Source of the DNA: Reclinomonas americana ATCC 50394
Taxonomy: Eukaryota
Assembly: GCA_048213135.1 (NCBI GenBank)
Contig: PS015110.1
Location: forward strand, 101,368-121,367
DNA: 20,000 bases
Direction of reading: 5' to 3'
Each line of letters starts with the position of its first letter. Position 1 is the first letter of the stretch. Positions 1 through 19,807 of the stretch are shown here, one piece after another. The notes under the pieces are model-generated. The model did no database searches. It had not been told where the DNA came from and saw only the letters and a program-made list of their open reading frames with translations. Both the position numbers and the translations under genes were made by a program.

Positions 1-3000
1 ACTGCTCAGCGTCGTGGCCCCGGTCACCGCCACCGTTCCACCAAGCGTCACTGCGCCCGTGCCCGTGGTCAGCGTGTTCGTGCCCGGAATCGACACGTTA
101 CCGTTGAGCGTCGAGGCGCCGCCGACCGACAGCGAGCTGCTCAACGTGGTGGCACCGGCGGCGGTCAGAGTGCCACCGAGCGTGGTCGCCCCAGTGCCCA
201 CCGTAAACGTATTGGTGCCGGTCACCGACGTGTTGCCGTTAATGGTGGTCGCGCCCGTCACATTGGTGGTGCCGGTCAGCGACGTGGTGCCGTTGACCAC
301 AGTCAGATTGTTGCCAGCGGTGATGGTCACCGAGCCGGCAATGCTAGTGCCGCCGTTGAACGTGGCGAGACCCGTAAATGTCGAGGCGCCCGTCACGGCC
401 AGCGTGCCGCCAAGTGTTGTCGCACTGCCGACACCCGTCGTGAGGTTTCTCGTTGGCGAGAGCGTTACATCGCCGTTAAAGGTCGACGCGCCACCAAGAG
501 AGAACGGACCCGTGATGGTGGCGCCGCCGGCACTCACCGTCAGCGCGCCACCGAGCGTGGTGGTGCCCGAGTCGACCACCAGGTTGCCGGCGCCAAAGAG
601 ACGCACGTTGCTGTTGAAGGTCGCCGCGCCAGTGGTGTTTAGAGTGCCGCCGATCGAGGTGTTGCCGGCGGCGCTGAGCGTACCACCCAGCGTCGTCGCA
701 CCCGTGCCGACAGTGAACGTATTGGCGCCGGTCACCGATGTGTTGCCGTTCAAGGTGGTGGTGCCGGTGACCACAGAGTTGCCAGTCACTGTCGAGTTAC
801 CGGCCACAGACAGTGCGCCACTGACCGTGGTCAGGCCAGTGCCCGTCGTCAGCGTCGTGGCGCCCGTCAGTGTCGTGTTGCCAGAGAGCGTAGTGGCANN
901 NNNNNNNNNNNNNNNNNNNNNNNNNNNNNNNNNNNNNNNNNNNNNNNNNNNNNNNNNNNNNNNNNNNNNNNNNNNNNNNNNNNNNNNNNNNNNNNNNNNN
1001 NNNNNNNNNNNNNNNNNNNNNNNNNNNNNNNNNNNNNNNNNNNNNNNNNNNNNNNNNNNNNNNNNNNNNNNNNNNNNNNNNNNNNNNNNNNNNNNNNNNN
1101 NNNNNNNNNNNNNNNNNNNNNNNNNNNNNNNNNNNNNNNNNNNNNNNNNNNNNNNNNNNNNNNNNNNNNNNNNNNNNNNNNNNNNNNNNNNNNNNNNNNN
1201 NNNNNNNNNNNNNNNNNNNNNNNNNNNNNNNNNNNNNNNNNNNNNNNNNNNNNNNNNNNNNNNNNNNNNNNNNNNNNNNNNNNNNNNNNNNNNNNNNNNN
1301 NNNNNNNNNNNNNNNNNNNNNNNNNNNNNNNNNNNNNNNNNNNNNNNNNNNNNNNNNNNNNNNNNNNNNNNNNNNNNNNNNNNNNNNNNNNNNNNNNNNN
1401 NNNNNNNNNNNNNNNNNNNNNNNNNNNNNNNNNNNNNNNNNNNNNNNNNNNNNNNNNNNNNNNNNNNNNNNNNNNNNNNNNNNNNNNNNNNNNNNNNNNN
1501 NNNNNNNNNNNNNNNNNNNNNNNNNNNNNNNNNNNNNNNNNNNNNNNNNNNNNNNNNNNNNNNNNNNNNNNNNNNNNNNNNNNNNNNNNNNNNNNNNNNN
1601 NNNNNNNNNNNNNNNNNNNNNNNNNNNNNNNNNNNNNNNNNNNNNNNNNNNNNNNNNNNNNNNNNNNNNNNNNNNNNNNNNNNNNNNNNNNNNNNNNNNN
1701 NNNNNNNNNNNNNNNNNNNNNNNNNNNNNNNNNNNNNNNNNNNNNNNNNNNNNNNNNNNNNNNNNNNNNNNNNNNNNNNNNNNNCCACCGACACTGAGTG
1801 TGGACGAGAGGGTGGAGGCGCCGGCCACACTCAGCGTGCCGCCGAGCGTGGTCGCACCAGTGCCCACCGTCAGCGTGTTCGTGCCCGTAATGTTCACGTT
1901 GCCGTTGGTGTTGAGGGAGCCGTTCAGCGTCGTGGTGCCTGCCGCGGTCAGGTTGCCAGTCACGGTGGCGTTGCCGCCAATCGTGGCGTTGCCGCCGTTC
2001 AGCACCAAATTGCTGGTGCCCGTAAGCGTCACGTCGTTCGAGAACGTCGACACGCCACCCACCGACAGCGTACCGGCCAGCGTCGTCGTGCCCGTCACTG
2101 CAATGTTGCCGTTAAAGGTGGTGGTGGTTGGCGGCCCCATGCCCGCCAGAATCGTGAGACCGCCCGTAATCGTCACACCACTATTAAAGGTNNNNNNNNN
2201 NNNNNNNNNNNNNNNNNNNNNNNNNNNNNNNNNNNNNNNNNNNNNNNNNNNNNNNNNNNNNNNNNNNNNNNNNNNNNNNNNNNNNNNNNNNNNNNNNNNN
2301 NNNNNNNNNNNNNNNNNNNNNNNNNNNNNNNNNNNNNNNNNNNNNNNNNNNNNNNNNNNNNNNNNNNNNNNNNNNNNNNNNNNNNNNNNNNNNNNNNNNN
2401 NNNNNNNNNNNNNNNNNNNNNNNNNNNNNNNNNNNNNNNNNNNNNNNNNNNNNNNNNNNNNNNNNNNNNNNNNNNNNNNNNNNNNNNNNNNNNNNNNNNN
2501 NNNNNNNNNNNNNNNNNNNNNNNNNNNNNNNNNNNNNNNNNNNNNNNNNNNNNNNNNNNNNNNNNNNNNNNNNNNNNNNNNNNNNNNNNNNNNNNNNNNN
2601 NNNNNNNNNNNNNNNNNNNNNNNNNNNNNNNNNNNNNNNNNNNNNNNNNNNNNNNNNNNNNNNNNNNNNNNNNNNNNNNNNNNNNNNNNNNNNNNNNNNN
2701 NNNNNNNNNNNNNNNNNNNNNNNNNNNNNNNNNNNNNNNNNNNNNNNNNNNNNNNNNNNNNNNNNNNNNNNNNNNNNNNNNNNNNNNNNNNNNNNNNNNN
2801 NNNNNNNNNNNNNNNNNNNNNNNNNNNNNNNNNNNNNNNNNNNNNNNNNNNNNNNNNNNNNNAGCAGCACCAGTGGTGCTCAGCGTGCCAGTCAGCGCCG
2901 TGTTGCCTTGCACCAGCAGCGACGAGTTGAGTTGCGTGACGCCGCCCACCGTCAGGTTCGAGCTCGCATTCACCAGCGTGACTGAGCGGTAAAACAGGCC

Positions 3001-6000
3001 GTCACCCTGCGTCGTCAGTGCACCCGCCACTGTGGTGTCGCCAGCCACAGACAGCGAGCTGGAGAGCGTCGTCGCACCCGTCACCGACAGAGTATGCGCA
3101 TTGATAATGGACACGTCGCCGTCTACCGACAAGGAGTCCTTCATCGAGGTGGTGCTGTGGAATGTCGAGGCGCCCGTCACATCCAGCACACCGCCGAGTG
3201 TGGTCGTGCCCGTGTTGACCGTCAAGCTGGCCGCACCAATGAGTGACACATTGTCGTGCAACAGAGTCTTGCCGGTGACCTCCAGTCCGCCCGACATGGT
3301 GGTGTCGCCGGCGACAGAGAGCGTGGAGCCGAGTGAGGTGGTTCCAGAGACCACGGTCAAGTTGGCATTCGAGCTGACGGAAACGTCTTTCGTGAAATTG
3401 GAGAGTCCGCCCACCGACAGCGCGCCACCCAGCGAGGTGGTGCCACTGGTCACAACGAGCGGCACTCCGGCACTGAGCGTCACCTGTCCGTTGAATGTGG
3501 AAGTGCTTTGCGCCGTCAGCGCGCCCGACAGCGTCGTCGTGCCGGTGACACCGAGGGTGCCGCCCACCGACAGCACACCGCCAATGTTGACAGTGCGCGT
3601 CGGGTCGACCGTCACATTGTTCGAGAACGTCGACGTGCCGCTGACGGTCAGTGCTCCATTCGCCGCCAGCGTGCCCGCGACGGAAACAGACCCGCCAAAC
3701 GACGCTGCTCCCGTGCCGACGGCAAAGGTCTGTCCGTTGGCCACCGAGACGGCGCCACTGAAGAGCGAGCTGCCGGTCACACTCAGGCCGTTGGACAGGT
3801 TGCACGTACCGGTGACCAGCAGGTTCTTCACCGTGGTGGCTCCCATCAACACCGTCAGCGTGCCGGTGGTCACCGAAACGCTGCCGTCAAACTGCGCACT
3901 GCTGCCGACCGAGAGCGTCGACTGCATCTGTGCGGCACCGGCCACAACCAGAGGCCCACCCAGTGTCACTGTGCCGGTTCCGACAATAAGACCGTTGGAG
4001 CCAGCCACAGTCACGTCGGCGTTAAATGTCGACGGCGCACTGGCCGTCAGCGCACCGCCGAGAGTTGTGACACCCACCACTGACAGTGTGGTGGACATGA
4101 GCGCCGAACCAGTCACTGTCAGTGCGGCGCCGACCGCCATGTTGCCAGTGGTGGACGCAGCACCGGTCACCGTCAGGCCCGACGACAGACTCGTGTTGCC
4201 GGCGACAGTCAGTGTGCCACCAAACGAGGAGGTGCCAGAGACCACCGAAAAGGCGTTGTTGCTCAGCACCGTGACGGCACCACCAAACGAGGTGGCGCCA
4301 TTGGCCGACAGTGCACCCGCAAAAGTCGAGGTGCCAGTCACCGACAGCGTGCCCGTGACGGTGGCGTTGCCGCCAACCGCCAGCGCCGAAGTGCCGGTAA
4401 TGGTCACTGGCCCGCTGGCGGTGATCGCGCCAGTGGTGGCCGCGCCAGTGAGTGTCGTCGTGCCCGTCACGGCCAGCGCGCCGCCGAGTGTGGTCGGTCC
4501 CGACATGACCGTCAACGCCTTGCCCGTGTTGATGCTGACGTCGCTGTTGAAGAGCGACACTCCAGTCACCGTCAGTGTCGACTGCAGCTGCGTGGCACCA
4601 GTGACCGTCAATGCTCCGCCCAAGGTCGACGGCGTGCCGACACCCACAGAGAATGTGGTGCCCGCCGCCACGGTGGCCCCGCCATTAAAGGTGGCCATTC
4701 CGGTCGTCGCCAGCGTGCTACCCAGAGACGCCGCACCGGCCAGTGTCAGCGTGCCGTTGAGCGTGGTAGGCCCGGTGCCGACAGTAAAGGCCTTGGTGTC
4801 GGCCACAGAGACCGCCGACTGGAACAGCGACGCGCCGGCCACCGTCAGCGCACCACCCATGGTCGCCGTGCCGGACACCAGCAGGGTGCCGCCGAGCGAG
4901 GTGGCGGCCGTGGCCACGGTGAATCCGGCCGCGCCAAGAATCTGCACAGCGCCAGTCAAATTGGCGCCGGCCGTGGCCGAAAACAGTCCGGCCACCGACG
5001 CCGTGCCGGCCACCGTCAGGTTGCCTCCCAGCGTGGTGGCTCCGGTACCGACTTGCAGGTTGGCCGTGTTGGCCAACACCACATTGCTGGCAAACGAGGC
5101 CACACCTGTCACACCCACCGTTGAGGCAAACGTCGCGGCGCCCGCCACCGCCAACGACGAGCCGAGAGTTGTCGCCGAGTCGGTCACCGTCAGCGTGGCG
5201 CCCGTGGCCAGCGTCACACTACCTTGATGAAGCGTGGTAGATGCAGCGGTAAGTGCGCCACTCAGCAGCGTCGAGCCCGTCACACTCAGGGTGCCGCCGA
5301 GGCTGGTCGCCGCATCCGTGACTGTAAACTTGCGCGTCGTGCCAACGATCACGTCGCCACCCGCAAAGGTGACGGCGGCGTTCGTTGTCAGCACGCCGTT
5401 CAGCGTCGTGGTGCCGGCAACGGTGAGCGAGCCGCCAATCGCCGTCACGCCGGTGCCAACGGTGAGTGGTGTGGCGCTGTTGGCAATGGTCAAGGTGCCG
5501 GTCAGCGTTGTGTTGCCGCCGACGCTGAGCGACGAAGTGAGCGTGGTGGCGCCGGTCACCGCCAGCGTGGAGCCGAGCGATGTGGCACCGTTGACCACGG
5601 TCAGTGTGCGGCCCGTGGCCACTGTCACGTTCGTGTTCAAGGTGGCGGAGCCGCCACCCACCGACAGACCGGCAGTCAGCGTGGTGAGACCGTTCACCGT
5701 CAGCGAACCATTCATCGTCGTCGCACCGGTGCCGATGGTGACCGTCTGCGAGTCGGCCACCGAGAGGCCGGCATTCAGCGTGGCCAGTCCACCCACTGTC
5801 AGCGTTGACGTGAGCGACGTGGCACCGGTGACGCCCAGAGTGCCTCCGAGCACCGCAGGCGCGGTGGCCACCGTAAAGGTGGAGGTATTGCCGAGGATGG
5901 AGACGGTGTTGTTGAGGGTGGTGGCACCGTTGATGACGGCAGAACCAGAGAGCGTGCTCGCGCCGCCCACCGTCAGCGAACCGCCCAGGGCGGTGGCACC

Positions 6001-9000
6001 GCCGCCGGCAAGTGTCAGCGTGCTGCCGGCTCCAATCGTCACACTGCCGCTGAGGGTGGAAGCACCGGTCACCGAAATGGTGCTGTTGAAGGTGGAGGCG
6101 CCCGACACGGACAGCGTGCCGCCGAGTGCGACGGCGCCCGTGCCGACTGTCAGCGTGTTGGTGCCTGAGATGGTCACCGAGTTCGAGAACACGCTGGCGG
6201 CTGTCGCCGAGAGCGCACCGTTGAGTGTGGTCACGCCGCTCACCGTCAGAGAGCCGCCGAGAGTGGTGGCGGCCGAGGTGACCGCCAAGGCCGCACCCGC
6301 CGGCAACGCGATACCACCGGCAAAGGTGGCCAGTCCGCCCACCGAGAGCGTGGAGCTCATGGTGGTGGCGCCAGTGACGGCTAGACTGCCACCCAGCGAT
6401 GTGGCCGCATTCGCCACCGTCAGCGAGCTGCCCATGGCCAGCGATACGTTGCCGGCAAAAGTGGCCAGACCCGACGCACTCAGCGTGCCATTGACAACAA
6501 TCGAACCTCCCATGGCCACCGTCAGCGACTTATTCGCCGCCAGTGTCACATTGTCGTTCAGTGTCGAGGTGCCAGTCACCACCAGCGTGGAGCTGAGGGT
6601 GGTGGCGCCTGTCACCGTCACTACGCCTCCAAACGACGAGGCGCCGTTGCCGACAATCAATGCAGTGCCATTGGCCACCGTCACCGTGTTCTGGAAGAGC
6701 GCGGTTCCGGCAGCCGTCAGCGCGCCACTCAGCGTGGTCACACCCACCACCGACACGGCACCATTCACCGTCGTCAGACCCGTGCCTGTGCTCAACTTGG
6801 CCGCACCCGTCAGCGTCACGTCGCTGGCAAACGTGCTGGCACCGCCCACCGACAATGTCGACGTGAGCGCTGTGGCACCTGAGACCGACAGTGTGCCGCC
6901 GAGATTGACTGCAGTCAGGGCGCCAGTGGTCATCGTCTGGCCCATGGAGAGCGTCAGCGAGTTGTTGAAAATGCCGGCGCCGTTCACCGTCAGCGCAGAG
7001 AGCACCGTCGGACCGGTGGACACGGTCAGCGTCTTGCCGTTGCTGACATTGACGTCGCCGGAGAAGGTGGCGGTGGATGCCACCGCCAGCGTGTCGCCAA
7101 TGGTTGTCGGCACACCGGCCAGCACGCTAAACGAGGTGCCGCCAGTGACCTGCAGGCCGCCGGCCGTCGTGGCCAGTCCAGTGACCATGACGGTCGACGA
7201 GAGAGTCGTGGCGCCCGTCACACCGAGAGTGCCACCCAGCGATGTGGCGCCACCGACCACCACCAAATTGTTGGTGCCGAGCACAGTCAACGGACCACCG
7301 CCAACATTGGCGCCAGCCGTGGCCGACAGGAATCCCGACAACGTCGTCACGCCCGTCACAGTCAGCGTGCCCGACAGTGAGGCTGCACCACCGCCTACCA
7401 TCGTAAACGTGCGAGCATTAATCAGCGTCACATTGCCGTCAATGGTGGTCGCCGCCAGCAAGCTGACAGCACCGCTGAGGGTGGTGGCACCCGTCACCGC
7501 CAGCGTGCCACCGAGAATCGTGGCACCCGTGCCCACTGTCAGCGGCGTGGCGCCCGACAGAGTCACACTGGTGGCAAACGACGCGGCTCCAGTGACTTGC
7601 ACCGCGCCGGCAAAGGCGGCCGTGGAAACGTTGGAGGTCAGCGACAAGTTGCCGCCCAGAGTCACCGCGCCCGTGCCCACTGTCAGCGTGGAAGCGCCGG
7701 AGAGCGTAAGGTTACCGTTGAGAGTGGTGCCGCCAGTAATAGCAATCCCACCCAGCAGTGTCGTCAGGCCTGTCACCGACAGTGTGCCGCCAAGCGTGGT
7801 TGCGCCCGTGCCGACGGTAAATGTCTGCAAGTTGGCCAGCGACACCGCACCGTTGAATGTGGTGGTGCCGGTGACCACGAGCGTGCCGCCGAGAGCAGTG
7901 GCTCCCGACACCACCGTCAGCGACTTGCCGTTGATGACACTGACGGCGCTGTCAAAGATCGATGTGGCGCCAGTCACACTCAGTAGTCCAGTCAGCGTCG
8001 TGGTGCCGCTGACCAGCAGCGTGCCACCGAGCGACGTCGCTCCGTTGCCGACAGTGAGAGTAAACGTGTTGGCCACGCTCACATTGCCGTTCAGCGTGGT
8101 GGCGCCGCCTACAGTCAGCGTCGTGGCAAGGCTCGTGGCGCCAGAGACCACCAGCGTGGAGCCGAGGGAGGTGGCGCCGCCCGCCACCGTCAACGTGTTG
8201 ACGCCAGCCACCAGCAGGTTGCCGTTGAGGGTCGTCAGTCCCGTGACACCGAGTGTGCCAGCCAGAGTGGTGTTGCCGGTGACTGCCAGTGTGCCACCAA
8301 GTGTTGTGGCACCGGTGCCAACCGTGAGCTTGGTGCTCGCGCCCGACACGGAAACATCGTTGCTGAATGTGGAGACGCCAGTGACACCCAGCGTGCCGCC
8401 GAGAGTCGTGGCGCCAGTGGTGACCACCAGCGGTTTGCCGGCCGTCACCGTCACATCGCCAGAGAAAGTGGAGACGCCAGCGACGCCCAGTGTGCCGCCA
8501 ATGGTGGTGGCACCGCCGTTGACGGAAAAGTTGCGCACGCCCGTAATGGCCACATCGTTGTTGAAGGTGGAGGTGCCGGCGACCACCAGCGTGCCGTTCA
8601 AGGCTGTGTTACCGGTGGTGGTCAGCGAGCCGCCGAGCGTCGTCGCTCCCGACACCACCGAGAGTGTGCGCGTGGCCTCCAAGGTCACATTGCCATCAAA
8701 GGTGGACGCCGCGTTGGCCGAGAGAACACCATTGAGTGTGGTGGCACCCGCCACCGCGAGCGTGCTATTCAACGTCGTCACACCAGCCACCGTCAGTGTC
8801 GACGCGCCCGTCAGTGCCACATTGTTGGCAAACGTGGTGAGGCCGCCAACCGAGAGAGTGCTCAGCAACTGCGTCGCGCCGGTCACCGTCAGCGGTCCAC
8901 CCAGTGACACCAGGCCGGTGCTGGTGGTGACGGTTCCGTTGAGTGCCGTGGCTCCCGTCACCGTCAGCGTGCCCTGCGCCGCCACATTGCCCGTCAGCGT

Positions 9001-12000
9001 GCTCGCTCCCGTCACTGCCAGTGTGCCGCCGAGCGAGGTGGCCCCGCCGACCACCGTGAACGGACTCGTGCCCTGCACTGTGGTCGGGCCATTGAACTCC
9101 GCAGCCGACACGGCGTTGTTGGCAAAGATTGTGCCGGCCGAGGTGAGCGTCTGGCCCACCTGCACGGCCTGTTGGAAGTTGGCCAGGCCGCCAGTGACAG
9201 TCAGTGTCTTGGAGTTGGTGACCACAACGTCGCCGTTAAACGTCGTCGTGCCTTGCACCGACAGCGTCGACGCCAGAGCCGTCGCGCCGGTCACATTCAG
9301 CGTGCCGCCAAGAGTAGAAACTCCCGTGCCGACATTGAAGGCGTTGGCGCCGGTCACCGACAGTGTGCCGTTGACAGTGGTGGCCGCCGACACGGCCAGA
9401 GTGCCGCCGAGCACCGTGGCACCAGTGCCGACGGTGAATGTATTGGTTCCGGTGATGGAGACATTGTTGTTGAAGGTGGTGGCACCGTTGGCCGTCAGCG
9501 GACCCGTCAGAGTCGAAGCGCCCGTCACATTCAGAGCACCGCCCAGCGACGTGATGCCGTTGCCGACGGTGAGGGGGACGCCGGCGGCCAGAGTCACGGC
9601 CGAACCGAAACTGGTGGCGCCGGCCACCGCCAGCGAGCCACCCAGTGTGGTGGCGCCGGTGCCGACAGTGAACGGACTGGTGCTGGTCACCGACAGCGCG
9701 CCATTGATGGTGGCACCGCCGTTGGCGGTAAGGAGGCCAGTCAGCGTGCTCGTGCCGCCAATCGTCAGCGTGTTGGTGCCACTGACAGCCACGTTGCCAC
9801 TGAAAGTGCTGGCGCCGCTGACCGACAGCGTGCCACCAAGAGTGGTGGCACCCGTCGCGACGGCAAAGTTGGCCGGCGACGCCACCGTGACATTGTCGCT
9901 GAGTGTGGTGGTGCCGGAGACGGCGAGTGTGCCGTTGAGAATGGTGGGACCGGCCGTGCTGACACCAATGTTGCCGGAGAATACGAGATTGCCGACGACA
10001 GTGAGACTGCCATTGACGGTGGTCGACGTGGCCGGAATGATCACGGTGCCGCCATTGGTGCCGAGCGACACTTGCGTGCCCGACGCCGACAGCACACTCG
10101 AGGTGCCGACCACGGCGTCGAGCTTGGTGTTGCCCTTGATGAAGATCTCCGGGGCCACCAGCGCCATTTGCGTGCGCGTGCCACCGGATCCAACCTCGCC
10201 CAGCGTGAGCGAAATGTTGCCGAGGGCGCCGCTCGTGCGCGTAATGGTGATGACATCGGAGGCGGGGTTGATGACGACGCTGCCGGCCTGGTTGGCGGCA
10301 TTGGTGGCCGTCAGCGTAATCGACGACTTGGACGACACACTCATCACATCGGCGAGAATCGATGCCGACGCGGCATTCGCCGTGCCGTTGGCCGACACCG
10401 TGAAGGCGCCGGTGGCCAGCACATTGTGGTTGGTGACACGCGCTGTCAAGTCAATGTTACCGGCGACCATGCCGGCACCGATGTTGAAGACGGTGGTGCC
10501 GAGTTGATTGATGACAGTGAAAGTGGTGGCCGTCACCGAATGCGTGTTTTGCACCACCGCCGTGTACGACGAGCCGGCCACCGACACCGCAGTGCCATTC
10601 GGCGCCACGTACTGGCCGAGACGGAGTGTGCCGAGCTCGGAGCCGAGGGTGAGGGTGGACGGGGTGATGCTGTGCGTGGTGCCCGACATGGTCACCGTCG
10701 GTGCCACCAACGAGAAGAGCGACGACGGCGCCACATCCAACGTCGTACTCGTCATGCGTGTGTATGGACCTGTGATGCGCAAGCTCGGTGCACCCGACGT
10801 GCCTGGCGTCAAATCCGACTCCACGACCACGGTCGATCCTTGCATGGTGACCGAGGGGCCTGAAAGTGCGCCAATCGCCACTTGGGTCGTGGTCGCCGCC
10901 GCAATGCCCATGACGATGCGGTTGCCGGCCAGCGTCAGCTGTGTGGTGTTGACGCTCGAGCCGACAATGACCTTCGGGCCGATAACCTGCAGCAAGCCAG
11001 CCGTCGTCTGTCCGAGATCGACCAAGTACTGCTGTGCGGCTTGCGTGGCCGCCAACTGTGCACTCGTGTCGAGAAGCACCAGTTGCGAGGTGGCCGCCAG
11101 CACTGGATTCACGCTCAGCGTCACGCCGCCCGAGGTGGCACCCGACGACTTGATGGTCGCCTGTCGCGCCAGCAACGAAAACGTGTCGATCTCAGTGGCC
11201 GTCGGCGTCTGCACCGACACGGTGCCAGTGGCCTGCAGCGCCAGCGAGTACGACTTGAGGGTGATGCTGTTGGTGTTGATCGACGGCACCGTCTGCACCG
11301 TAATGGTGCTCGTGGCCGGTTCGCCCACCACGCTTCCATCGCCGCCGATAAGCATGGTGGCGGCCTTGGTGCTCCACGCACCCGTCACCAGCGCCTGCAG
11401 CGACACGCCACGCGTCGTAATGGTGGTCAACGTCTGACCGAGGGTCAGCGAACCCGACGGACGCAGCAGCAGGTTGGTGGGCGTAAAGTCGTACGACGGT
11501 CCCACAAACGAGGCCGTGCCACTGGCCAGCGTCATGGTGAAGGGACCGGTGTTGAGCGCAAACGATGTCGCCGTCGTCATGGTCAGCGTCGGCAACGTAA
11601 TCGTGTTGTTCAGCGCCACATCCGAGGCCGACAGCGCAAATTGCTTGCTGGCCACCGTCACCACCGCGTTCGCCGCATTGCCGAGGTTGACGGCCGTCGG
11701 CAGCGCCGCACCGGAACTGCCGAGATTGATGGTCGACGCGGCCGCGGCAGTGAACACACCGCCGGCAACCGTCGCGTCCATGGTAATCAGAGGCGCCTTG
11801 GCCGTCAGCATCTTGGTGGCGGCGCGCGTGTCCAGATCCAGTGACACCACTTGCGTCTCGTCAAACAGCTGCATGCGCTGCGTGGTCATGGAGAAGGTGG
11901 CCGGCGTCGCCGCTGCACCCTGCTTGACAACCACCGACGAGGTGCCGGTCTCGTTGAACGACGTCAACGCCATGGCCTCGGCGTTGAGCGTAAAGGAGCG

Positions 12001-13315
12001 CGACTGTGCGCCACCCGAAGTGCCCGTCAGCAAGTGCGCATTGGCCGCGTACGTGGTCATGTTGAAGGTGGTGGCGGTGATGGTGTTGGACACGTTTGCC
12101 GCCGCCGTCGTGAGCGCGATCGATGTGGTGGTGGCCGTCGTACCAATCGTCACCGTTGGGGCGGTGANNNNNNNNNNNNNNNNNNNNCCAGGTGGTGCCG
12201 GAGAGGGTGGCCGTCGGGGCGGTGAGCGTCAGCGAGGTGCCAATGTTCATCGTCACGGTGTTGGAGGCGAGAGTGAACACGGGGAGCGTGAACAAGTTGG
12301 TGCCGACGGCCGACCACGCGGTGATGGTAAATGTGCCGGCGTCGGCGGTCAACGAGGTGAGCAGGTTGTTGCCGAGGACAATGCTGGTGGTGAGCGAGGC
12401 CGTGTTGCCGGCATTCTTGTTCTTGCCAATCTCCACCGCCAAGCCATCCAGGGTGACGCCGTTCGTGCCATTGGCGCGAATACGAGAGCACTCGACGCGC
12501 GCCGGGAACGTGGGATCATTGTCCAGCGTCATGGCGCACAGAGACGAGGTGCCGCGCGACATGACCACCGTGCTCGGTGTGCCGGCCGTCACCACCAGTC
12601 CCGACACATTGGCGCCAGAGCCAACTTGCATCGAGGCTGCGACGGTGGCCAGCGCCGTGTATGTGCCGGCATTCAGCGCCACGGTCGTCACCGGCGAAGC
12701 ATTCGTGCCGATGCGCAGCTGCGTCGTGGCCAACAAGTCAATGTTCGCCGCCGTCGTGGTCACCAGGGTCGAAGATGTCAGCGCAATGTTCGTGTTGACA
12801 ATGGCGCCAGCGGAGCCAATCGTCACCGTCGGAGACGCCAGTGTCACTGAGGTGCCATAGGTGGCCGACAGCGTGGCGGCCGCCAGAGTCATGCTCGGCG
12901 TTGCCGAAGTGCCAATGCTGGTCGCACCCGACGGAGTCACCACAAACGTGGAGACGGTGGCAGAAAAGGCGGGTGAACCGCTGACAGTGAGCGACGTGCT
13001 GGTGGCCAGGTTGAGCACCGGCGTCGTCACCGTCGACTGTGTGGTGGCCGCCACAAGGAACCGATTGACCGAATAGTTAATGTCGGAGCTCGCTGTCACG
13101 TTGATGTTGGCGGCGCGCTCTGTCAGCGTGGAGAGTGCAGCACTACCAATCGACACTTGCACGCCGGTGGTGGCGCCAAGAGTGAGCGAGCCCGCCGCAC
13201 CCGTATCGACCAGCACTGAAGCAAGCGCCGTCAGCGTCGCCGCATTGTTGAGGCTCAGGGAGCCGAGGTCCAGCTGACCGCCGATCGAGCCGCCAAAGCC
13301 GGCACCGGCGCGGAT
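1..13315 (-). CDS. Exon 16: giant exon (IRAGAGFGG... to window edge ...[14 protein letters not shown]), interrupted only by assembly gaps
   Basis: Acceptor TGCAG at 13316 (phase 0). Sequenced segments 12188-13315, 2863-12167, 1785-2191 and 1-898 each read in the same protein style. Frame changes occur only across N gaps, so introns hidden in the gaps cannot be excluded. Confidence 0.85.
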
Positions 13316-16058
13316 CTGCACGAAAGGGAAAAAGGGGGGTGGTTGAGAGGGTCATCACCAATGGGGGTAAAGAAAGAAACGTGGCGCGCGCTACGCACCG
13401 CCAGTGGAGCACCGATACCGACGGCGGTGCGGTCGGGGCGCTGAATGGTGAGCGCGTTTGGCGAGGCGGCGGCACCGAGATTCGACTGCAGCAGCAGCAC
13501 GGAGCCGGTGACGTTGATGGCCGACGCCGAGGGAATGCTGATGCTGCCGTTGAACTGGGCGCAGGGGTGGGGGAGCGCGATGAGAATCATCACTCAAAGA
13601 GGAAGCGACATTGGTGGGCACAAAACTGTCGAGGAGGCCGAGTACACCACAAAGGAACCGGCGGCCGTGCCGAGTTCCACCGTGGCAGCCGACGAGACAC
13701 CGAGCTGCAGATTGCCCGACGACGTGGCGCCAGAGCCGGCATCGAGTGCACTGCATTGTTATCGAAAAGTGAGGGGAAGAAGGGGAGGTCATCAGGCCTC
13801 AAGAGACACGCAACAGGTTGCCACCCGTAGCGCCAGCAGTGTTCTGACCGCGAATAAAGGTGCTCGAGGCAGCCACAGCGCCGGTCTGCGGATCGCGTTG
13901 CAAGATGAATGATTTGTTGGTGGCTCCAGCTCCGTCGCGACCGAGCCACACGATGGATGAGGCGGCGCCGACGCTGATGCCTGGGGTGGGAAGGGAGAAG
14001 GCAAGGGAGAAGGGGGGAAGGGGGAAGGGTGAGGAGAGAGGGAAGGACGAGGAAAAGGAGGAGGGAAGGACGGGGAGAAAGAGGTGGAAAGGACAAGGAG
14101 TGAGGGGAGAGAGTGAGGACAGAGTGACGACGAGGACGAGGAGGAGGAGAGAAGGATAAGGAGGAGAACAGTGCGATAAACTCTCTTCAAAATCAACATT
14201 CAATGGGACAACACTTGTGGTTTCAGGAACGTCACAATGAGTGCGAGAGCACCAAATGACACGGAGCAACAATACCAGAGAGCGAGAGTGTGTGTGAGAG
14301 AGAGTCAGAGAGATAGGCAAACAGGCACATGCACACACACGCATGCACACATATACGCACACACACACACATGCACGCACACGCGCGCACACACACGCAC
14401 ACAGACAGACGCACATGCACACGCACATGCACGCACGCACATACACACACGCACACACACACACTACACGCACACTACATGTCTTCGACCTGCAGCTGCC
14501 ACCAACAAACAACAAGCACAATAGCTCTTCCCTCAACAAAGTGTCCCCTCACAACAAACCTGGTTCGAGACGCATGTACGTCTGTGCCTGCAACTCCAGC
14601 TGCGTCGCCGACGACAGCAGCGCCAGAGTGAGGCCGCCGGCCAACGTAGTCGTGCCGTCGACTTGCAGGCTGGAGAAGAATCGCGAGCCTTGCAAGACGT
14701 TGAGCACGCCGTTGACGGTCGTGGTGACACCAGCAACGGCAATGGAGACCGAAGTGGCCGTCGGACCCATGGTGAGTGACTGAGTAGTGCGGCGACAATC
14801 AGCAAATGACAACCAGGGTCAATACGCGAAATTGAAAACTCAACTGCACTACGCGGATCGAGAGTCATGGCTCCATTGCTCTGCAGCAGAGCGGTCGAGG
14901 CCGACGACACCAACGAGAGTGCACCGGCCGCCGTGACGGAGAATGTACTCTCGGCGGTCATGGCTGACGCGCCGGCGTCAATGGCAAACTGTGAGCCGAC
15001 ACGAGGTGAGTTTGCATGATTTGCTTTGCATGACAGGGAAATCCTGTCGAGATTCACGAACCGCGCCACGAGAACCGGCGGTTCCGGTGGACAGCGTGAG
15101 CGAACCACACGTGGAGACACCCATGCCATTGGTGTGCACGGCGGAGATAATGCGCAGGGCAGGCGGTGCGAGACCGTCAAAGACAGACGCGTGCTGGATC
15201 GTGGTGTCCGTGCCCTGTCGACCCACGCGCAGAATATTATCGGTGGAGCGAATGGGACTCGAGCTGCCGTTCAGATTGACAGCGCCAGTGGCTGTGATGG
15301 ACGAGCTGGTGATGGTCACGGCAACGGCATTCGTACCGCTGCCAATGGACACTGAACTCGTGTTGGCATCACCAATCATGACCGCGCCGTTGGCGGCAGC
15401 CACATTGCCAGCACCCGCACGCAGCAGCCTGACATTGTTCATCAGGAAAAAGAATGCAGAGTAACAGTAAAGGGGGGAAGAAAGGGCCACGCAACAAGTT
15501 GCCGCCTGCGCCGGCAGTCGACTGCTGTCCGGCGACACTGAACGGTAGCGACGCTGCCGCAGTGGTCGGTGCAATCGAGTAGCTGGAGGCCGGCGTGCCG
15601 CCAAGGACCACCGCACCAGAGAACGGAGTCAGCGTCAACGAGCCGGCACTGGTGCGCAGAACCGGCGAGAAGATTTGGGTGGTGAAGGTGGCGTCTTGTG
15701 CCACCGACAACTGCAAAGGTGGGCAAAAGGGAGAGAGGGGTGAGGTCGACATGAATGCAGACACGCACGCGTCACCTTCAGCCACGCAACTGTGCCCTGT
15801 ACAGTAGTTGGTACACCCGCTTGTGAAATTGTGACACCGGCCGAGCTAGACGATGACGCTCCGGTGGCGATGTTGACAATGGTGGCGGTCGTGTCAACAC
15901 GATTGCCATCGAGGGTGAGAGTGGTGCCCGACACGGTCACCGTACTGGTGCCGCGCGCCAAGGCGCCAATCATGATTGAGCTGGTCAGACCGGCTCCGGT
16001 GCTGATGCGCAGATTGATGGCTGGCGAACTGCAAAGCAGTGAGTGAGGAGAGGTAAGG

Positions 16059-16119
<61 letters not shown>

Positions 16120-19100
16120 CGACGACGACGACGACGACGACGTACGTACGTACGTACGTACGTACGTAACGAACGAACGTACGTAACGTAACGTACGGTA
16201 CGGTACGTACGTCGTACGACGACGACGACGTACGTACGTCGGTCGACCGGACCGACGANNNNNNNNNNNNNNNNNNNNGAGTAGACGAGACGAGAGTACG
16301 GTAGAGAGAGAGAGAGGACGAGAGTAGAGAGAGAGAGAGAAAGAAAGACAGACGACAGAGAGATGTAGCACGAGCGCGAGAGAGAGAGAGAGAGTTGACG
16401 CAACGTGACAGCCATGTCAGCCGTTGTAATCACAAACGGCGTCAAATTGGACGGAGTGCCTTGCAGCACCAGTGTGCTGGCCGCCGAAGCCAATGGACCT
16501 GTCAGCGTCAGCATGCTGGAGAACAGAGCGTTGCCAGCAACCTGTTGCACGATAGACGGTGAGCGAGGACAGTACATGCACGGACTAAAACGTGTGAATC
16601 GAACCGTCAGAGTTGACTGCGCCGTCAGCGAGCCGACGACGGTGGTGGCCAGTGGTTGAAGAAGCAGCGATGTAGACGTCAAGCGGCCAATTGTCACCTG
16701 AGCAAGCACCACTAGCATCAGTGACACTCGTTCATATTCAGTGCAGGGTGGAAGATGTGGTGACGCACCGTTGATGCCGCAATGGTGCCCACGTTGACAT
16801 TGCCTTGCGTCAGCGCACCAGTGCCGGCATCGAGGAAGCTGCAGGAAGCATGGCGTGAGATAACGAAAAGCACATAGCTTGCACAACAATATCGCACGCA
16901 ACATATCACCACCCGCCGAGCCGACAGCAGTCGATGATTGGGCATACACCGACAGAGCCTGACCGCTGGCGGTGGTGCTGGGCGTACGCGTGATCTCCAT
17001 GGTGGCTTGCGCGCCCGTGAGCGAGATCTGTCACGCCGATCGATGAGAAGACATGACATCATGACTCACCAACTCACTCGCACACGCAAACATACGGCGA
17101 AACAGTCACTGATTCGCATACTTGCGATAACTGCTTGAGCACACGCACACAGACTCTAATCTCCATTTTGGCTTCCTTCTCTCTCGCCTCCCTCTCGTCA
17201 CACCATCCGCCCCTCGCCCTCCTCCCACTATCTGCCGTCCCTCGCTTTCATCCCACAATCATCCCTTCATCCCTTCTTGTCCGCTCTCTTCCCTCTTTTC
17301 GCCCTCACCCCGCCCTCTTCCACTCCCCTCGCTTTCACTCCCTCACACACTCTGCCCCTTCCCCTCCCCCACACTCACCCTGCCATTGGCGGGGCGCAAG
17401 TCGAGTGCATTGCTACTCGAGACCACAATTGGCGTCGTCAGCTGCGTGGCGGCCACAATGCTATTGGCCGTCAGTGTGGTGCCGTTCAGTGTCACATCCT
17501 GCGTCACCACCAGCTGGCCGAGAACGCGCGTGACGAGACCGGCGCCACTCAGACGCACTTCACCCGTGGCGGCGTTGATCACCACGTTCGAGGTGGCCGA
17601 GGTGATGCTCATGGCTCCACTCGCGTCGGCGGTCATGGAGAGCGCCCGCAACACAATCGAATTGGTGCGATACGCGGCCGCTCCCAAGTACAAGTTACCG
17701 TCGGCAGTGGCCGGCAGCGTGGACTTGCCGGCCTCGATCGACAAATCGCCACCAATGCCCGGCACATCCACACGCTTGATGGTGAACGGGCTGCCGATAG
17801 TCGTGTCGCCAATGTCAAAGACATTGGTCGTCACCAGCAGACGGCCGTTGCCGGCCGACGGCGCCAGCGTGAGTGAACCATTCATCGTGGTGGCGCCGGT
17901 TACCGCCAGTGTGCCGGCCGACAAGGCGCTGTTGACAATGACAGAGGCCGAGGCGATGGTGGTGGTCTGGCCAGCCAAACCGGAGAGACCAATGCTAATG
18001 TTGCCGCGCTGCGTGCCAATCTTGACGTTGCCGCTGGTGGTGGAGCCGAGGCCGCCGTCAATGACCACATCGCCGCCAGAGCCGGTGGTGGTCGGCTGAC
18101 CAATGATGTTGGTCTGCGCACCGACGCCGACCGCCAGCGTCGGCCGGGTCAACGTGAAAGCCGACGCGGTGGAGCCGAGAAGCACACGTTGCGAGGCAGG
18201 CTGCAGCGTGAGGTCATCCGTCACCAGCGACGTGGTGATCAACGTCGTCTGCAAGCCGCCCACGGCACGTGTCTGTCCCGTGACTTGCAGCACGCCGTTC
18301 GGAACGGCGGCGAGACCAGCACTCAGCTCCAGGTAGGAGACGCCAGCGGAGCGGAAGACAACGCGGGAGGTGGCGGCTGTGTGGAGACAAGTGAGATGTA
18401 GAGAAGGAAAAAGAGATACAACCACACTGTAACTCCACCGCCTACGCAACAGTCGCGGAACATGCCGGTGGTGCCATCGCCAGAGAACGAGAAGCCGACA
18501 TTGTCGGTCAGCGTCAATCCAGCGAATGCTTGGACGGCGCCAAACACCTCCAAGCGAGGACCCGGCGAGGCCCATGTGGTGCCTACCTGCACCAGACTCT
18601 GTCCGGGCGAGCCAGTCTTGCGCACCGTCAGATCACCACCGCTGCCAATCAGCACGCCGCCGGCAAAGGCGTCGGCCGAGTTGATGCGCAGTGTACTGGT
18701 CATGCCCGACACGGAGCGATCCAATGTCAGCAGCGGCGTGGTGGCACCAAGCAGGAACTGGTCGCCGTCAATGCCCAGACTCGTGGTGATAATGACCGGG
18801 TTCGTCGACAATGTCGGTGCGTAGATACGACGCACACCGCCAATCCAGATGCCGACGCCAGTGGATGGGAGGGCTGCGTGGGGGGACGGTCGTGAACAAA
18901 GGGTGCATGCGCTTCGGAAGAGAGACGAATCATCGGCACACACACACGCAACACGAAGCACTCGAAAACGACGGAAGAAAGAAGGAAAGAGCGGGGGTGG
19001 AGAAGGAGAAGCACGCGTGCGTGTACAAAGCGATAGACTGGGAATGTCACAAACCAGGTGACGAAAGACGGAGAGAGAGAGAGAGAGAGAGAGAGAAACA

Positions 19101-19807
19101 CGAAACCCACAAGAACGCAATCAACAAGAGCTGTAATCACCATCGCACACACCATCTCTCTCCCTAGTCAGTGCACTCACCATCAGCAAACAAGCCAGTC
19201 ACCGAGTCCGTGTCAAACGCAAATCCCAAATCAATGGTGGCCGCGCTGGAGGGTGGCGTGCCACGTGCGGCACGGACCGAGCCCAGCGAGCGCAGCGATC
19301 CAGAGCCTGTCGCGTACGACGAGGCACCGGAGCCAAACACGGCACGCGCGGCATTGGCCAGATTGCCTCCGCGGCCAATGTAGGCGTCGTTGCTGCCAAT
19401 CACCACACCGTCGACAAAGCTGCCGCCCGAGTTCACCAGCAACAGGCTCTGCAGAGAGACGCCGGAACGCTCCAGCGCCACACCCGTGCCGACCGAGACT
19501 TGCGTGCCACCCGACACCAGCGAACCGAATGTGGTAATGAGGCCAGTCGGCGACACGCGCAGGCGCTCCGACACGGCACCGCCTTGCGACAAGAAGAGCT
19601 TCAGGTCGGCGGTCACACCCGGCGACAGCTCACCCGTGTGGATGAACGAGACGAGCGGAGCGCCGGCCACCGGAGTGCCCAGACGGAACGTGTCGCCGCG
19701 AATGTCCAGGCGTCCGTACACCGACAGTGGGTTGTTGGTGGTGCCGTCGTCGGGGATCTCGAAGCGCAGGGCACCGTTGCTGTACATCGAGACGGTGTTG
19801 CCGGTGG
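1..19807 (-). CDS. Partial giant multi-exon gene (16 exons seen, no start or stop in window) encoding a T/G/V/A/S-rich repetitive beta-helical fibre/adhesin-like protein, about 5,800 aa in the window. Model: complement(join(<1..13315,13399..13554,13627..13750,13815..13980,14560..14779,14845..14988,15062..15428,15496..15710,15791..16028,16405..16541,16605..16697,16769..16838,16903..17027,17379..18376,18451..18873,19181..19807))
   Basis: Minus-strand ORF pieces of the same amino-acid style are separated by GT...CAG segments with pyrimidine tracts and CTCAC/CTGAT/CTCAT branch-like motifs. Donor and acceptor phases match at all 15 junctions when traced by hand. Function is inferred from composition and motifs only. 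Confidence 0.88.
899..1784. other. Assembly gap (886 N)
   Basis: N run. Confidence 0.99.
2192..2862. other. Assembly gap (671 N)
   Basis: N run. Confidence 0.99.
12168..12187. other. Assembly gap (20 N, probably a placeholder size)
   Basis: N run; the reading frame differs on the two sides. Confidence 0.97.
13399..13554 (-). CDS. Exon 15 ([11 protein letters not shown]...GIGAPLA)
   Basis: Acceptor CCCAG at 13555; donor G|GTGCGT at 13398; phase 0/0. Confidence 0.87.
13627..13750 (-). CDS. Exon 14 ([41 protein letters not shown]); not represented in the ORF track
   Basis: Acceptor TGCAG at 13751 (phase 2); hand translation continues the GGNLALDAGSG motif; donor A|GTTTTGT at 13626 (phase 0) is the least certain boundary. 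Confidence 0.75.
13815..13980 (-). CDS. Exon 13 ([14 protein letters not shown]...GATGGNL)
   Basis: Acceptor CCCAG at 13981 after a long pyrimidine tract (phase 1); donor T|GTTGCGT at 13814 (phase 2). Confidence 0.87.
13981..14559 (-). other. 579-bp intron with a degenerate (CA/TG)n microsatellite (about 14326-14478) and a pyrimidine tract of about 190 bp (13985-14170)
   Basis: GTTTGT...CCCAG boundaries; low-complexity content. Confidence 0.85.
14560..14779 (-). CDS. Exon 12 ([10 protein letters not shown]...YMRLEP)
   Basis: Acceptor CTCAG at 14780 (phase 0); donor CAG|GTTTGT at 14559 (phase 1). Confidence 0.85.
14845..14988 (-). CDS. Exon 11 ([10 protein letters not shown]...MTLDPRSA)
   Basis: Acceptor CACAG at 14989; donor A|GTTGAGT at 14844 is the nearby phase-0 GT (the adjacent GTAGTG and GTGCAG are phase 1). 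Confidence 0.8.
15062..15428 (-). CDS. Exon 10 ([14 protein letters not shown]...TAGSRGA)
   Basis: Acceptor GTCAG at 15429 (phase 2); donor G|GTTCGT at 15061 (phase 0). Confidence 0.82.
15496..15710 (-). CDS. Exon 9 (LSVAQDATF...AGAGGNL)
   Basis: Acceptor TGCAG at 15711 (phase 0); donor T|GTTGCGT at 15495 (phase 2). Confidence 0.85.
15791..16028 (-). CDS. Exon 8 ([11 protein letters not shown]...PTTVQGT)
   Basis: Acceptor TGCAG at 16029 (phase 2); donor A|GTTGCGT at 15790 (phase 0). Confidence 0.82.
16061..16115. repeat. Perfect (GA)n microsatellite, about 27 units, inside intron 16029-16404
   Basis: Directly visible. Confidence 0.97.
16259..16278. other. Assembly gap (20 N, probably a placeholder size) within an intron
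   Basis: N run between degraded (GA)n tracts. Confidence 0.97.
16405..16541 (-). CDS. Exon 7 (VAGNALFSS...TTADMAVT)
   Basis: Acceptor AACAG at 16542 (phase 0); donor C|GTTGCGT at 16404 (phase 2), followed directly by (CT)n. Confidence 0.85.
16605..16697 (-). CDS. Exon 6 ([10 protein letters not shown]...AQSTLT)
   Basis: Acceptor CTCAG at 16698; donor G|GTTCGA at 16604; phase 0/0. Confidence 0.8.
16769..16838 (-). CDS. Exon 5 ([23 protein letters not shown])
   Basis: Acceptor TGCAG at 16839 (phase 2); donor G|GTGCGT at 16768 (phase 0). Confidence 0.85.
16903..17027 (-). CDS. Exon 4 ([14 protein letters not shown]...SAGGDI)
   Basis: Acceptor GACAG at 17028 (phase 0); donor T|GTTGCGT at 16902 (phase 2), which rebuilds the motif GGDIFLDAG. 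Confidence 0.85.
17160..17372. repeat. C/T-rich low-complexity tract (purine-rich on the transcript strand) in the 5' part of intron 17028-17378
   Basis: Directly visible. Confidence 0.85.
17379..18376 (-). CDS. Exon 3 ([12 protein letters not shown]...DLRPANGR)
   Basis: Acceptor CACAG at 18377 (phase 1); donor G|GTGAGT at 17378 (phase 0); frame of ORF 17343..18575. Confidence 0.9.
18451..18873 (-). CDS. Exon 2 ([13 protein letters not shown]...[14 protein letters not shown])
   Basis: Acceptor CGCAG at 18874 (phase 1); donor T|GTTGCGT at 18450 (phase 1). Other phase-1 donors at 18438 (GTGGAG) and 18465 (GCATGT) cannot be excluded. Confidence 0.8.
19071..19096. repeat. (GA)n microsatellite inside intron 18874-19180
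   Basis: Directly visible. Confidence 0.95.
19181..19807 (-). CDS. Exon 1 in window ([18 protein letters not shown]...[15 protein letters not shown])
   Basis: Acceptor TTGCAG at 19808 after a long pyrimidine tract; donor G|GTGAGT at 19180; phase 1/1; frame of ORF 19164..19787. Confidence 0.9.

Follow-up and report, generated by a model that had tools for sequence, protein, structure and literature searches.

A second class of GT-AG donors in Reclinomonas americana and a variant U1 gene as its likely reader

We analysed a 20,000-nucleotide stretch of the Reclinomonas americana ATCC 50394 genome assembly (GCA_048213135.1, contig PS015110.1, positions 101,368 to 121,367; hereafter the window), in which one large gene carries two kinds of 5′ splice site (donor). 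Ordinary donors, here class A, have G at +5. Shifted donors, here class B, read GTTNNGT. Each spliceosome is assumed to recognise its donors through a single U1 arm, shifted registers being rare exceptions. Our sequence analysis indicates that class B is a real, genome-wide second class of GT-AG donors that makes up ~15–23% of predicted introns. We also observed a variant U1 small nuclear RNA (snRNA) gene. Its pairing potential and conservation suggest that the variant U1 likely reads class B donors in a register displaced by one base and leaves G|GT donors to the standard U1.

Two donor classes in the window and across the genome

Fifteen introns on the minus strand of the window were modelled as GT-AG, from position 19180 to 13316, and together they yield a single stop-free frame of 1738 codons. 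All seven class A donors follow G, and none of the eight class B donors does, the preceding base being A, C or T (P = 1.6e-4, Fisher test). The exon ends and donors from which the initial annotation derived this rule were exact. Class A comprises introns 1 (18874..19180), 3 (17028..17378), 5 (16698..16768), 6 (16542..16604), 10 (14989..15061), 12 (13981..14559) and 15 (13316..13398); intron 6 is of the GTTCG type, with T at +3, G at +5 and G at −1. In class B, GTTGCGT follows T in introns 2 (18377..18450), 4 (16839..16902), 9 (15429..15495) and 13 (13751..13814), C in intron 7 (16029..16404; length approximate because of a short N run inside) and A in intron 8 (15711..15790). Intron 11 (14780..14844) has GTTGAGT and intron 14 (13555..13626) GTTTTGT, both after A. 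The haplotype contig C110 retained the donor class and the −1 base of 15/15 window introns.

Introns elsewhere were predicted with our own gene finder, which has an intron-side-only donor model and was seeded with both donor types. It recovered both ends of 112/124 introns placed by homology. The assembly spans 108 Mb and holds both haplotypes of many loci; the prediction set was 1,026,519 bases with one haplotype per locus, and introns with coding flanks were counted. The set omits C1 (prokaryote-like), the alleles C479 and C110, and also C7 and C371. The allelic pairs C5/C7 and C409/C371 are still included in the acceptor and branch profiles, lengths, raw word counts, clustering, codon likelihoods and class A −2 counts, which lack four regions added to the prediction set. 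A held-out subset of 338,640 bases was unused in gene-finder training.

The 1671 predicted introns comprised 1113 of class A, 385 (23%) of class B and 173 others. G occupied −1 in 891/1113 class A introns compared to 36/385 class B introns (P = 1e-140), and in 166/217 compared to 8/80 in held-out DNA (P = 3e-26). The association between the −1 base and donor class thus holds genome-wide. G is strongly avoided before shifted donors, yet the initial claim that it never occurs there was wrong, as ~9% of class B donors follow G. At that rate 8/8 non-G donors are expected 43% of the time, so the absolute rule was a small-sample effect.

The class B profile equals the class A profile displaced by one base. 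Among the 385 class B donors, 230 read exactly GTTGCGT, with G at +4 in 325, C at +5 in 351 and T at +7 in 306; absence of G at +5 belongs to the class definition. Acceptor profiles and the rate and position of branch-like motifs were the same in both classes, and median intron lengths did not differ (70 in class B, 68.5 in class A). Class B introns did not cluster within genes (67 B-B neighbours among 1308 pairs). Phase 0 accounted for 149/385 (39%) of class B introns compared to 592/1113 (53%) of class A introns. Raw word counts, which depend on no gene model, gave 425 occurrences of GTTGCGT vs 140 of GTTGCGA, and G preceded GTTGCGT 41 times.

Haplotype comparison of 62 class B introns gave differences at 8/310 sites in positions +3 to +7, compared to 21 expected from intron interiors (P = 7e-4). 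Positions +8 to +14 differed at 27/434 sites, close to the 30 expected. At the level of sequence, these data show that class B positions +3 to +7 are under purifying selection.

We also analysed 11 dynein heavy-chain genes with our own spliced aligner and profiles from 75 and 40 homologs. The aligner permits GT/GC-AG ends only, so placement assumes them. It placed 299 introns (206 class A, 44 class B, 49 other or doubtful), and class B introns occurred in 10/11 genes. For the 185 well-aligned introns, G was at −1 in 138/148 of class A vs 2/24 of class B (P = 5e-18). Two paralogs share one intron position at which the first has a class B intron, preceded by C, and the second a class A intron, preceded by G; class B is missing from the 10 remaining shared positions.

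The initial annotation proposed that a shifted donor frees the exon end from coding constraint. We did not find this. The −1 base of class B was A in 181, T in 91, C in 77 and G in 36 introns, compared to 71, 71, 116 and 127 expected from codon position. TA preceded the donor once (10.8 expected) and GT 8 times (29.9 expected). Stop avoidance does not account for the lack of TA, which held in every phase; GT is perhaps avoided because it would offer a competing cut. Class B exon ends are therefore constrained differently rather than unconstrained, although codons disfavoured at ordinary donors do occur there. A at −1 was more frequent before weak class B donors (89/148) than before the others (92/237; P = 6e-5), and A at −2 was more frequent before weak class A donors (164/296 vs 228/578). 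The −1 A of class B thus mirrors the −2 A of class A, which suggests the same U1 nucleotide acting one base over.

A variant U1 gene and the position of the cut

An Rfam search identified two U1 types in the genome. The standard U1 (C343:5715-5887; 63.7 bits) has the arm AUACUUACCUG, and the variant U1 (C429:9347-9500, allele C479:4310-4463; 64.0 bits, E = 4e-14) has the arm AUACGUAACUU. The variant matches RF00003 over its full length (1-166), and both types score below the gathering score of 69.5. Its architecture is that of a U1, with a cloverleaf, a 70K loop in stem-loop 1 (SL1), a U1A loop in SL2, an Sm site, SL4 and an unpaired 5′ arm. The two haplotypes had 0/154 differences within the gene, 6/292 upstream (with 5 gaps) and 25/241 downstream. 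The element CCCACA, which we take to resemble the upstream element of plant snRNA genes, stands at −66 of the variant U1. It also occurs at −62 to −72 before U2a, U4, U5, U6, U11 and U6atac, in both RNA polymerase II-type and U6-type genes. It was not seen before U12; for U2b and the standard U1, part of the upstream sequence consists of N. All snRNA genes tied to this finding lie on contigs other than that of the window.

The variant arm is the complement of AA|GTTACGTAT. Its nucleotides 9 to 3 face class B positions +1 to +7 (C9:G, A8:U, A7:U, U6:G, G5:C, C4:G, A3:U), with the U at nucleotide 6 facing G or A at +4 and U10 facing the −1 base, the position of A enrichment. Two changes distinguish the arm from the standard one: C8 to A, which pairs +2 U, and U5 to G, which pairs the +5 C of 351/385 donors. 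The parallel position in class A, +4, is mixed (C ~41%). The mean duplex energy of class B donors was −8.5 kcal/mol with the variant U1 vs −1.5 kcal/mol with the standard U1. The variant was the better partner for 372/385 class B donors, and the standard U1 for 941/1113 class A donors; in held-out DNA these values were 77/80 and 177/217.

These data agree with the one-base register shift put forward in the initial annotation, in which the +1 G takes the C9 partner that the −1 G has in ordinary donors. They do not favour its assumption that the ordinary U1 does the reading; the reader is probably the second U1, whose arm repairs the mismatches at C8 and U5. We infer from sequence that the variant U1 is expressed and used. 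It would pair with GTTGCGT donors through a helix displaced one base inward, the cut would remain at the G despite that displacement, and the intron would then take ordinary U2-type branch and 3′ sites. The scarcity of a preceding G might prevent the standard U1 from occupying class B donors. When metagenome contigs were scanned by pattern for the variant U1, 6 matches appeared; none was a U1 by Rfam, and no relative was found. A search for extra U1 copies by SL4 pattern gave 2 additional matches, both due to chance. U1-C was not found with PF06220. LUC7 and U1-70K had two matches each that look allelic, so we saw no duplicated U1 protein.

We considered whether the standard U1 might read class B by shifted pairing, with the variant as a bystander or helper. 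Shifted-register reading by the standard U1 is established in human cells (PMC4856993, PMC11162779). In the +1 register, class B donors offer the standard U1 a mean of 6.5 pairs, and the A bias at −1 is compatible with U10 of either U1. The mismatches C8/+2U and U5/+5C remain, however, as reflected in the weak mean duplex given above. Neither the presence of C at +5 in 91% of donors nor a conserved, promoter-bearing U1 gene that repairs exactly those two mismatches is explained, and we consider this reading improbable. A second question is where class B introns are cut. If cleavage fell after the G, introns would start with TT, the U1/U6 register would be normal and the acceptor would lie one base past AG. 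In this case the cut would have its usual place opposite nucleotides 8/9 of the variant U1, A8 would pair +1 U and U6 would stay in register. Such a cut would create a stop at 0/374 class B junctions, and a pyrimidine follows AG in 7/8 class B introns of the window. This pyrimidine bias vanishes genome-wide and was dropped as a mark of TT starts; there, the base after AG tracks codon phase (P = 5e-5, n = 385). The absence of TA before the G holds in every phase and so is not stop avoidance, and acceptors are alike in both classes. Conserved dynein residues also prefer GT-AG. In a shift test on protein scores only, moving both ends by +1 made 11 of the 24 well-aligned class B junctions worse, 2 better and left 11 equal (sum −30.9 bits; P = 0.022, sign test). 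Across all 35 ungapped class B junctions, 16 were worse and 3 better, and class A introns (n = 148) behaved similarly, with 59 worse and 12 better. In one dynein example TDRIY stands against TDRIC, with a consensus of TDRCY. A cut at GT is thus favoured for class B, as initially annotated, and TT starts are very unlikely.

Two further explanations concern the nature of class B itself. Class B could be transformed minor (U12-type) introns handled by U11 and U12, as in Physarum. In favour, C at +5 and T at +7 agree with the minor donor, −1 is seldom G, and the genome contains U11, a weak U12 candidate and U6atac. The branch site CCTTRAC, however, occurred in 0/385 class B introns. Branch-like motifs and their positions equal those of class A, and no k-mer passed Bonferroni correction. 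The donor is GTTGCGT rather than RTATCCTT. The U11 arm is canonical, and the U11 and U12 recognition sequences fit true minor introns, not class B. Because their branch sites and YAG acceptors are of the major type, class B introns are not U12-type, and we regard a minor origin of this kind as highly unlikely. Alternatively, class B could be an artefact of gene modelling, or the variant U1 could come from another organism in a mixed assembly. At least one contig does look prokaryotic (C1: 2.3 Mb, GC 48%, no microsatellites). Against this stand the homology-placed class B introns, found in nearly all dynein genes and sharing genes with class A introns, together with the raw word counts and the purifying selection described above. 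The two U1 contigs are alike in GC content, repeats and the snRNA promoter element, and both carry both intron classes. This explanation is scarcely credible. Separately, we noted that contig C2 is probably a co-assembled prokaryotic contig like C1.

Several results nonetheless weigh against a class B cut at GT and read by the variant U1. The genome-wide intron counts all come from a gene finder of our making whose seeds included both donor types, and the class B share was lower among homology-placed introns (44/299). The A excess at −1 depends on the gene set, because class B introns of the dynein genes favour C (n = 41: C 16, A 12, T 10, G 3). Taken by themselves, the 80 held-out class B introns did not show the compensation by −1 A (17/31 vs 21/49, P = 0.36). 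The U at nucleotide 6 of the variant arm predicts A at +4, and we observed G in 325/385 donors and A in 8/385; class A has a matching G preference one base earlier. Concerning the cut, the link between codon phase and the base following AG did not replicate in the 80 held-out introns (P = 0.69), and codon likelihood was nearly neutral between GT and TT starts (−1.95 vs −1.98 bits).

The catalytic step, other snRNAs and the host gene

The step after U1 is the least certain part of our explanation. Three identical U6 copies were found, all with the canonical ACAGAGA box, and the genome had no second U6 with a changed box. U5 has a canonical loop 1 (its gene was found at a looser E). Donor +5 G and +6 U are paired by U6 C42 and A41 (PMC11162779). 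In the normal register, the standard U6 pairs +5 in 0/385 and +6 in 0/385 class B introns. Class B offers C at +5 and G at +6, which an in-register U6 cannot pair, and therefore either U6 slips or U6atac takes over. The initial suggestion that the cut site is chosen after U1 pairing is compatible with either, and U6 and an altered U6atac are the candidate RNAs. Slipped by one base, U6 pairs +6 in 385, +7 in 306 and +8 in 188 of the 385 introns; this requires an extra base between the cut and the helix. We give this route close to an even chance.

U6atac was found at C392:96657-96788, with an allele on C1225 (RF00619, 37.8 and 34.9 bits; gathering score 33). It has the AGC triad, stem-loops and a poly-U end, and its first 60 nucleotides are the same in both haplotypes. 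Its box reads CCACCGAGA, where the Rfam consensus is GAAAGGAGA, and so departs from the canonical AAGGAGA box complementary to the minor donor. Incorvaia and Padgett reportedly found in 1998 that U6atac G14/G15 pair C at +6/+5 of the minor donor. With the register counted from the AGC triad, as in U6, G15 of the R. americana U6atac pairs class B +5 in 363/385 introns and C14 pairs +6 in 385/385; +4 is paired in 47/385. G15 and C14 would thus hold +5 C and +6 G in the normal catalytic register, with no slip. The helix Ia strand of U6atac, GGUC, can pair the GAUC shared by both U2 genes and the U12 candidate; in the latter, this U6atac-pairing strand departs from the consensus AACU. Two class B traits were also counted for U6atac. 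The 9% of class B donors with G at −1 is near the 11% given for minor introns in PMC11347168. The phase 0 fraction is below that of class A, and at 39% it is intermediate between the class A value of 53% and the reported minor-intron average of 22%.

A hand-over to U6atac faces objections of its own. C13 mismatches the +7 T of class B (10/385 paired), which the consensus A13 would pair. Because 6/7 bases at nucleotides 8-14 differ from the Rfam consensus, the match of C14 may be due to chance. Slipped U6 pairs as many class B positions as U6atac does. Only a single U6atac was found in the genome, and canonical minor introns with +6 C need one too; three patterns gave no canonical U6atac box. 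Either one U6atac serves class B and minor introns, at the cost of the latter, or a canonical copy was missed. We view the hand-over of class B to the altered U6atac as a serious possibility that falls short of even. Its fullest form remains tentative: a third, hybrid route, in which the U1 paralog, a U2 branch site and catalysis by a U6atac with a rewritten box would operate beside intact major and minor pathways.

In ~1.2 Mb we found three true minor introns whose reading frames are open. Two, one AT-AC and one GT-AG, lie in a voltage-gated channel gene on C20 (locus L121 6814; C20 region offset 39998, plus strand). The third, AT-AC, is on the minus strand of C7 (L096) in a gene without a family name. 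We also noted a fourth candidate on C14, which is uncertain. The minor introns keep +6 C, which the altered U6atac box mismatches. The U12 candidate (C9488:1884-2037, C5469:8274-8427) is weak, at 26.5 bits. U4atac was not found in the genome, and pairing of U4 with U6atac was unconvincing, the duplex being no better than a random control. One U2 type (C14:162841-163039) and a diverged second type (C409:5103-5319, C371:59171-59386) both have canonical branch- and U6-pairing sequences. A truncated U2b-like gene (C371, ~60170-60345, minus strand) has CCCACA, an Sm site and 3′ stem-loops but lacks the part that recognises the branch site. Its 5′ end would be able to pair with GTTG-type donors, though not specifically (mean duplex −7.6 for class B, −6.6 for class A). 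No such gene was found in 20 kb of C409. Prp8 (C729, locus 1-630) has an apparent intein just before the CPKELGG extein, and some homologs carry Hom_end/Hint domains.

The host gene of the window introns occupies 1..19807 on the minus strand, is open at both window ends and is interrupted by N gaps. It encodes a very large Thr/Gly/Val/Ser-rich repeat protein, probably a giant surface beta-helix-like protein. Pfam gave no family in 4/4 pieces scanned. All introns are confined to the 5′ part. Positions 1-13315 form a single exon of >13 kb, N gaps included, with thousands of Thr/Gly/Val-rich repeat residues.

Comparison with known systems

A whole intron class here appears to own a U1, which suggests that snRNA duplication can give rise to a new splice code alongside the existing one. 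Two questions thereby become testable: which of U6, U5 and U6atac sets the cut site under out-of-register U1 pairing, and whether parts of the major and minor spliceosomes can be combined. Standard gene finders would be expected to mis-annotate ~1/5 of the introns in this lineage, and the system would offer a natural orthogonal U1/donor pair.

Our literature search, which did not extend to subscription papers, returned no paper describing a class of GTTGCGT donors, a U1 paralog with a shifted register or a changed U6atac box. Passages of PMC8329584, PMC10639083, PMC11347168, PMC3584512 and PMC8283771 describe no such donor class. The closest parallels, each drawn from part of the source cited, are as follows. 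Atypical human 5′ splice sites show U1 pairing shifted by +1 (Roca and Krainer 2009, via PMC4856993, PMC9311317, PMC11162779). As in class B, the donor/U1 helix lies one base downstream and the cut is still at GT. In human cells the standard U1 does the shifted reading, and all non-canonical registers together amount to 1.5% of donors (PMC11162779), whereas here 15–23% of introns share a tight motif and a matching second U1 gene.

U1 has co-evolved with an atypical donor in Entamoeba and Mastigamoeba balamuthi (Roy and Bowser, bioRxiv 10.1101/2022.06.08.495308). The Mastigamoeba change, G pairing C, is of the same kind as G5 of our variant U1. Those species have a single changed U1 candidate in the normal register, unlike R. 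americana, which has a standard and a shifted U1 and two donor classes. The same preprint mentions, without details, that Physarum has standard plus modified U1 variants. The diplonemid S. specki has an alternative U1 (PMC12621601) and hence, as here, two U1 genes with different 5′ arms. Its alternative arm is a C stretch with a similar fit to canonical donors, however, and the portion of that paper at hand ties no separate donor class to it.

Minor introns are expanded and transformed in Physarum polycephalum (bioRxiv 10.1101/2020.10.12.336362). There, as in R. americana, a second class exceeds 1/10 of introns and an snRNA has co-evolved with it. Physarum keeps minor donors and alters the branch site and U12, whereas R. 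americana has a major-type branch site with an altered U1 and U6atac. Hybrid spliceosomes have been proposed for oomycetes (U4 with U6atac) and Giardia, together with 'hybrid' or 'minor-like' introns (PMC11347168). These proposals likewise mix major and minor parts, and U4atac is likewise missing from our finds. They concern the splicing of minor introns, and in the sections of that source available none combines a U1 paralog and U6atac in the splicing of common introns. If the hybrid U6atac route holds for class B, it would be categorically new.

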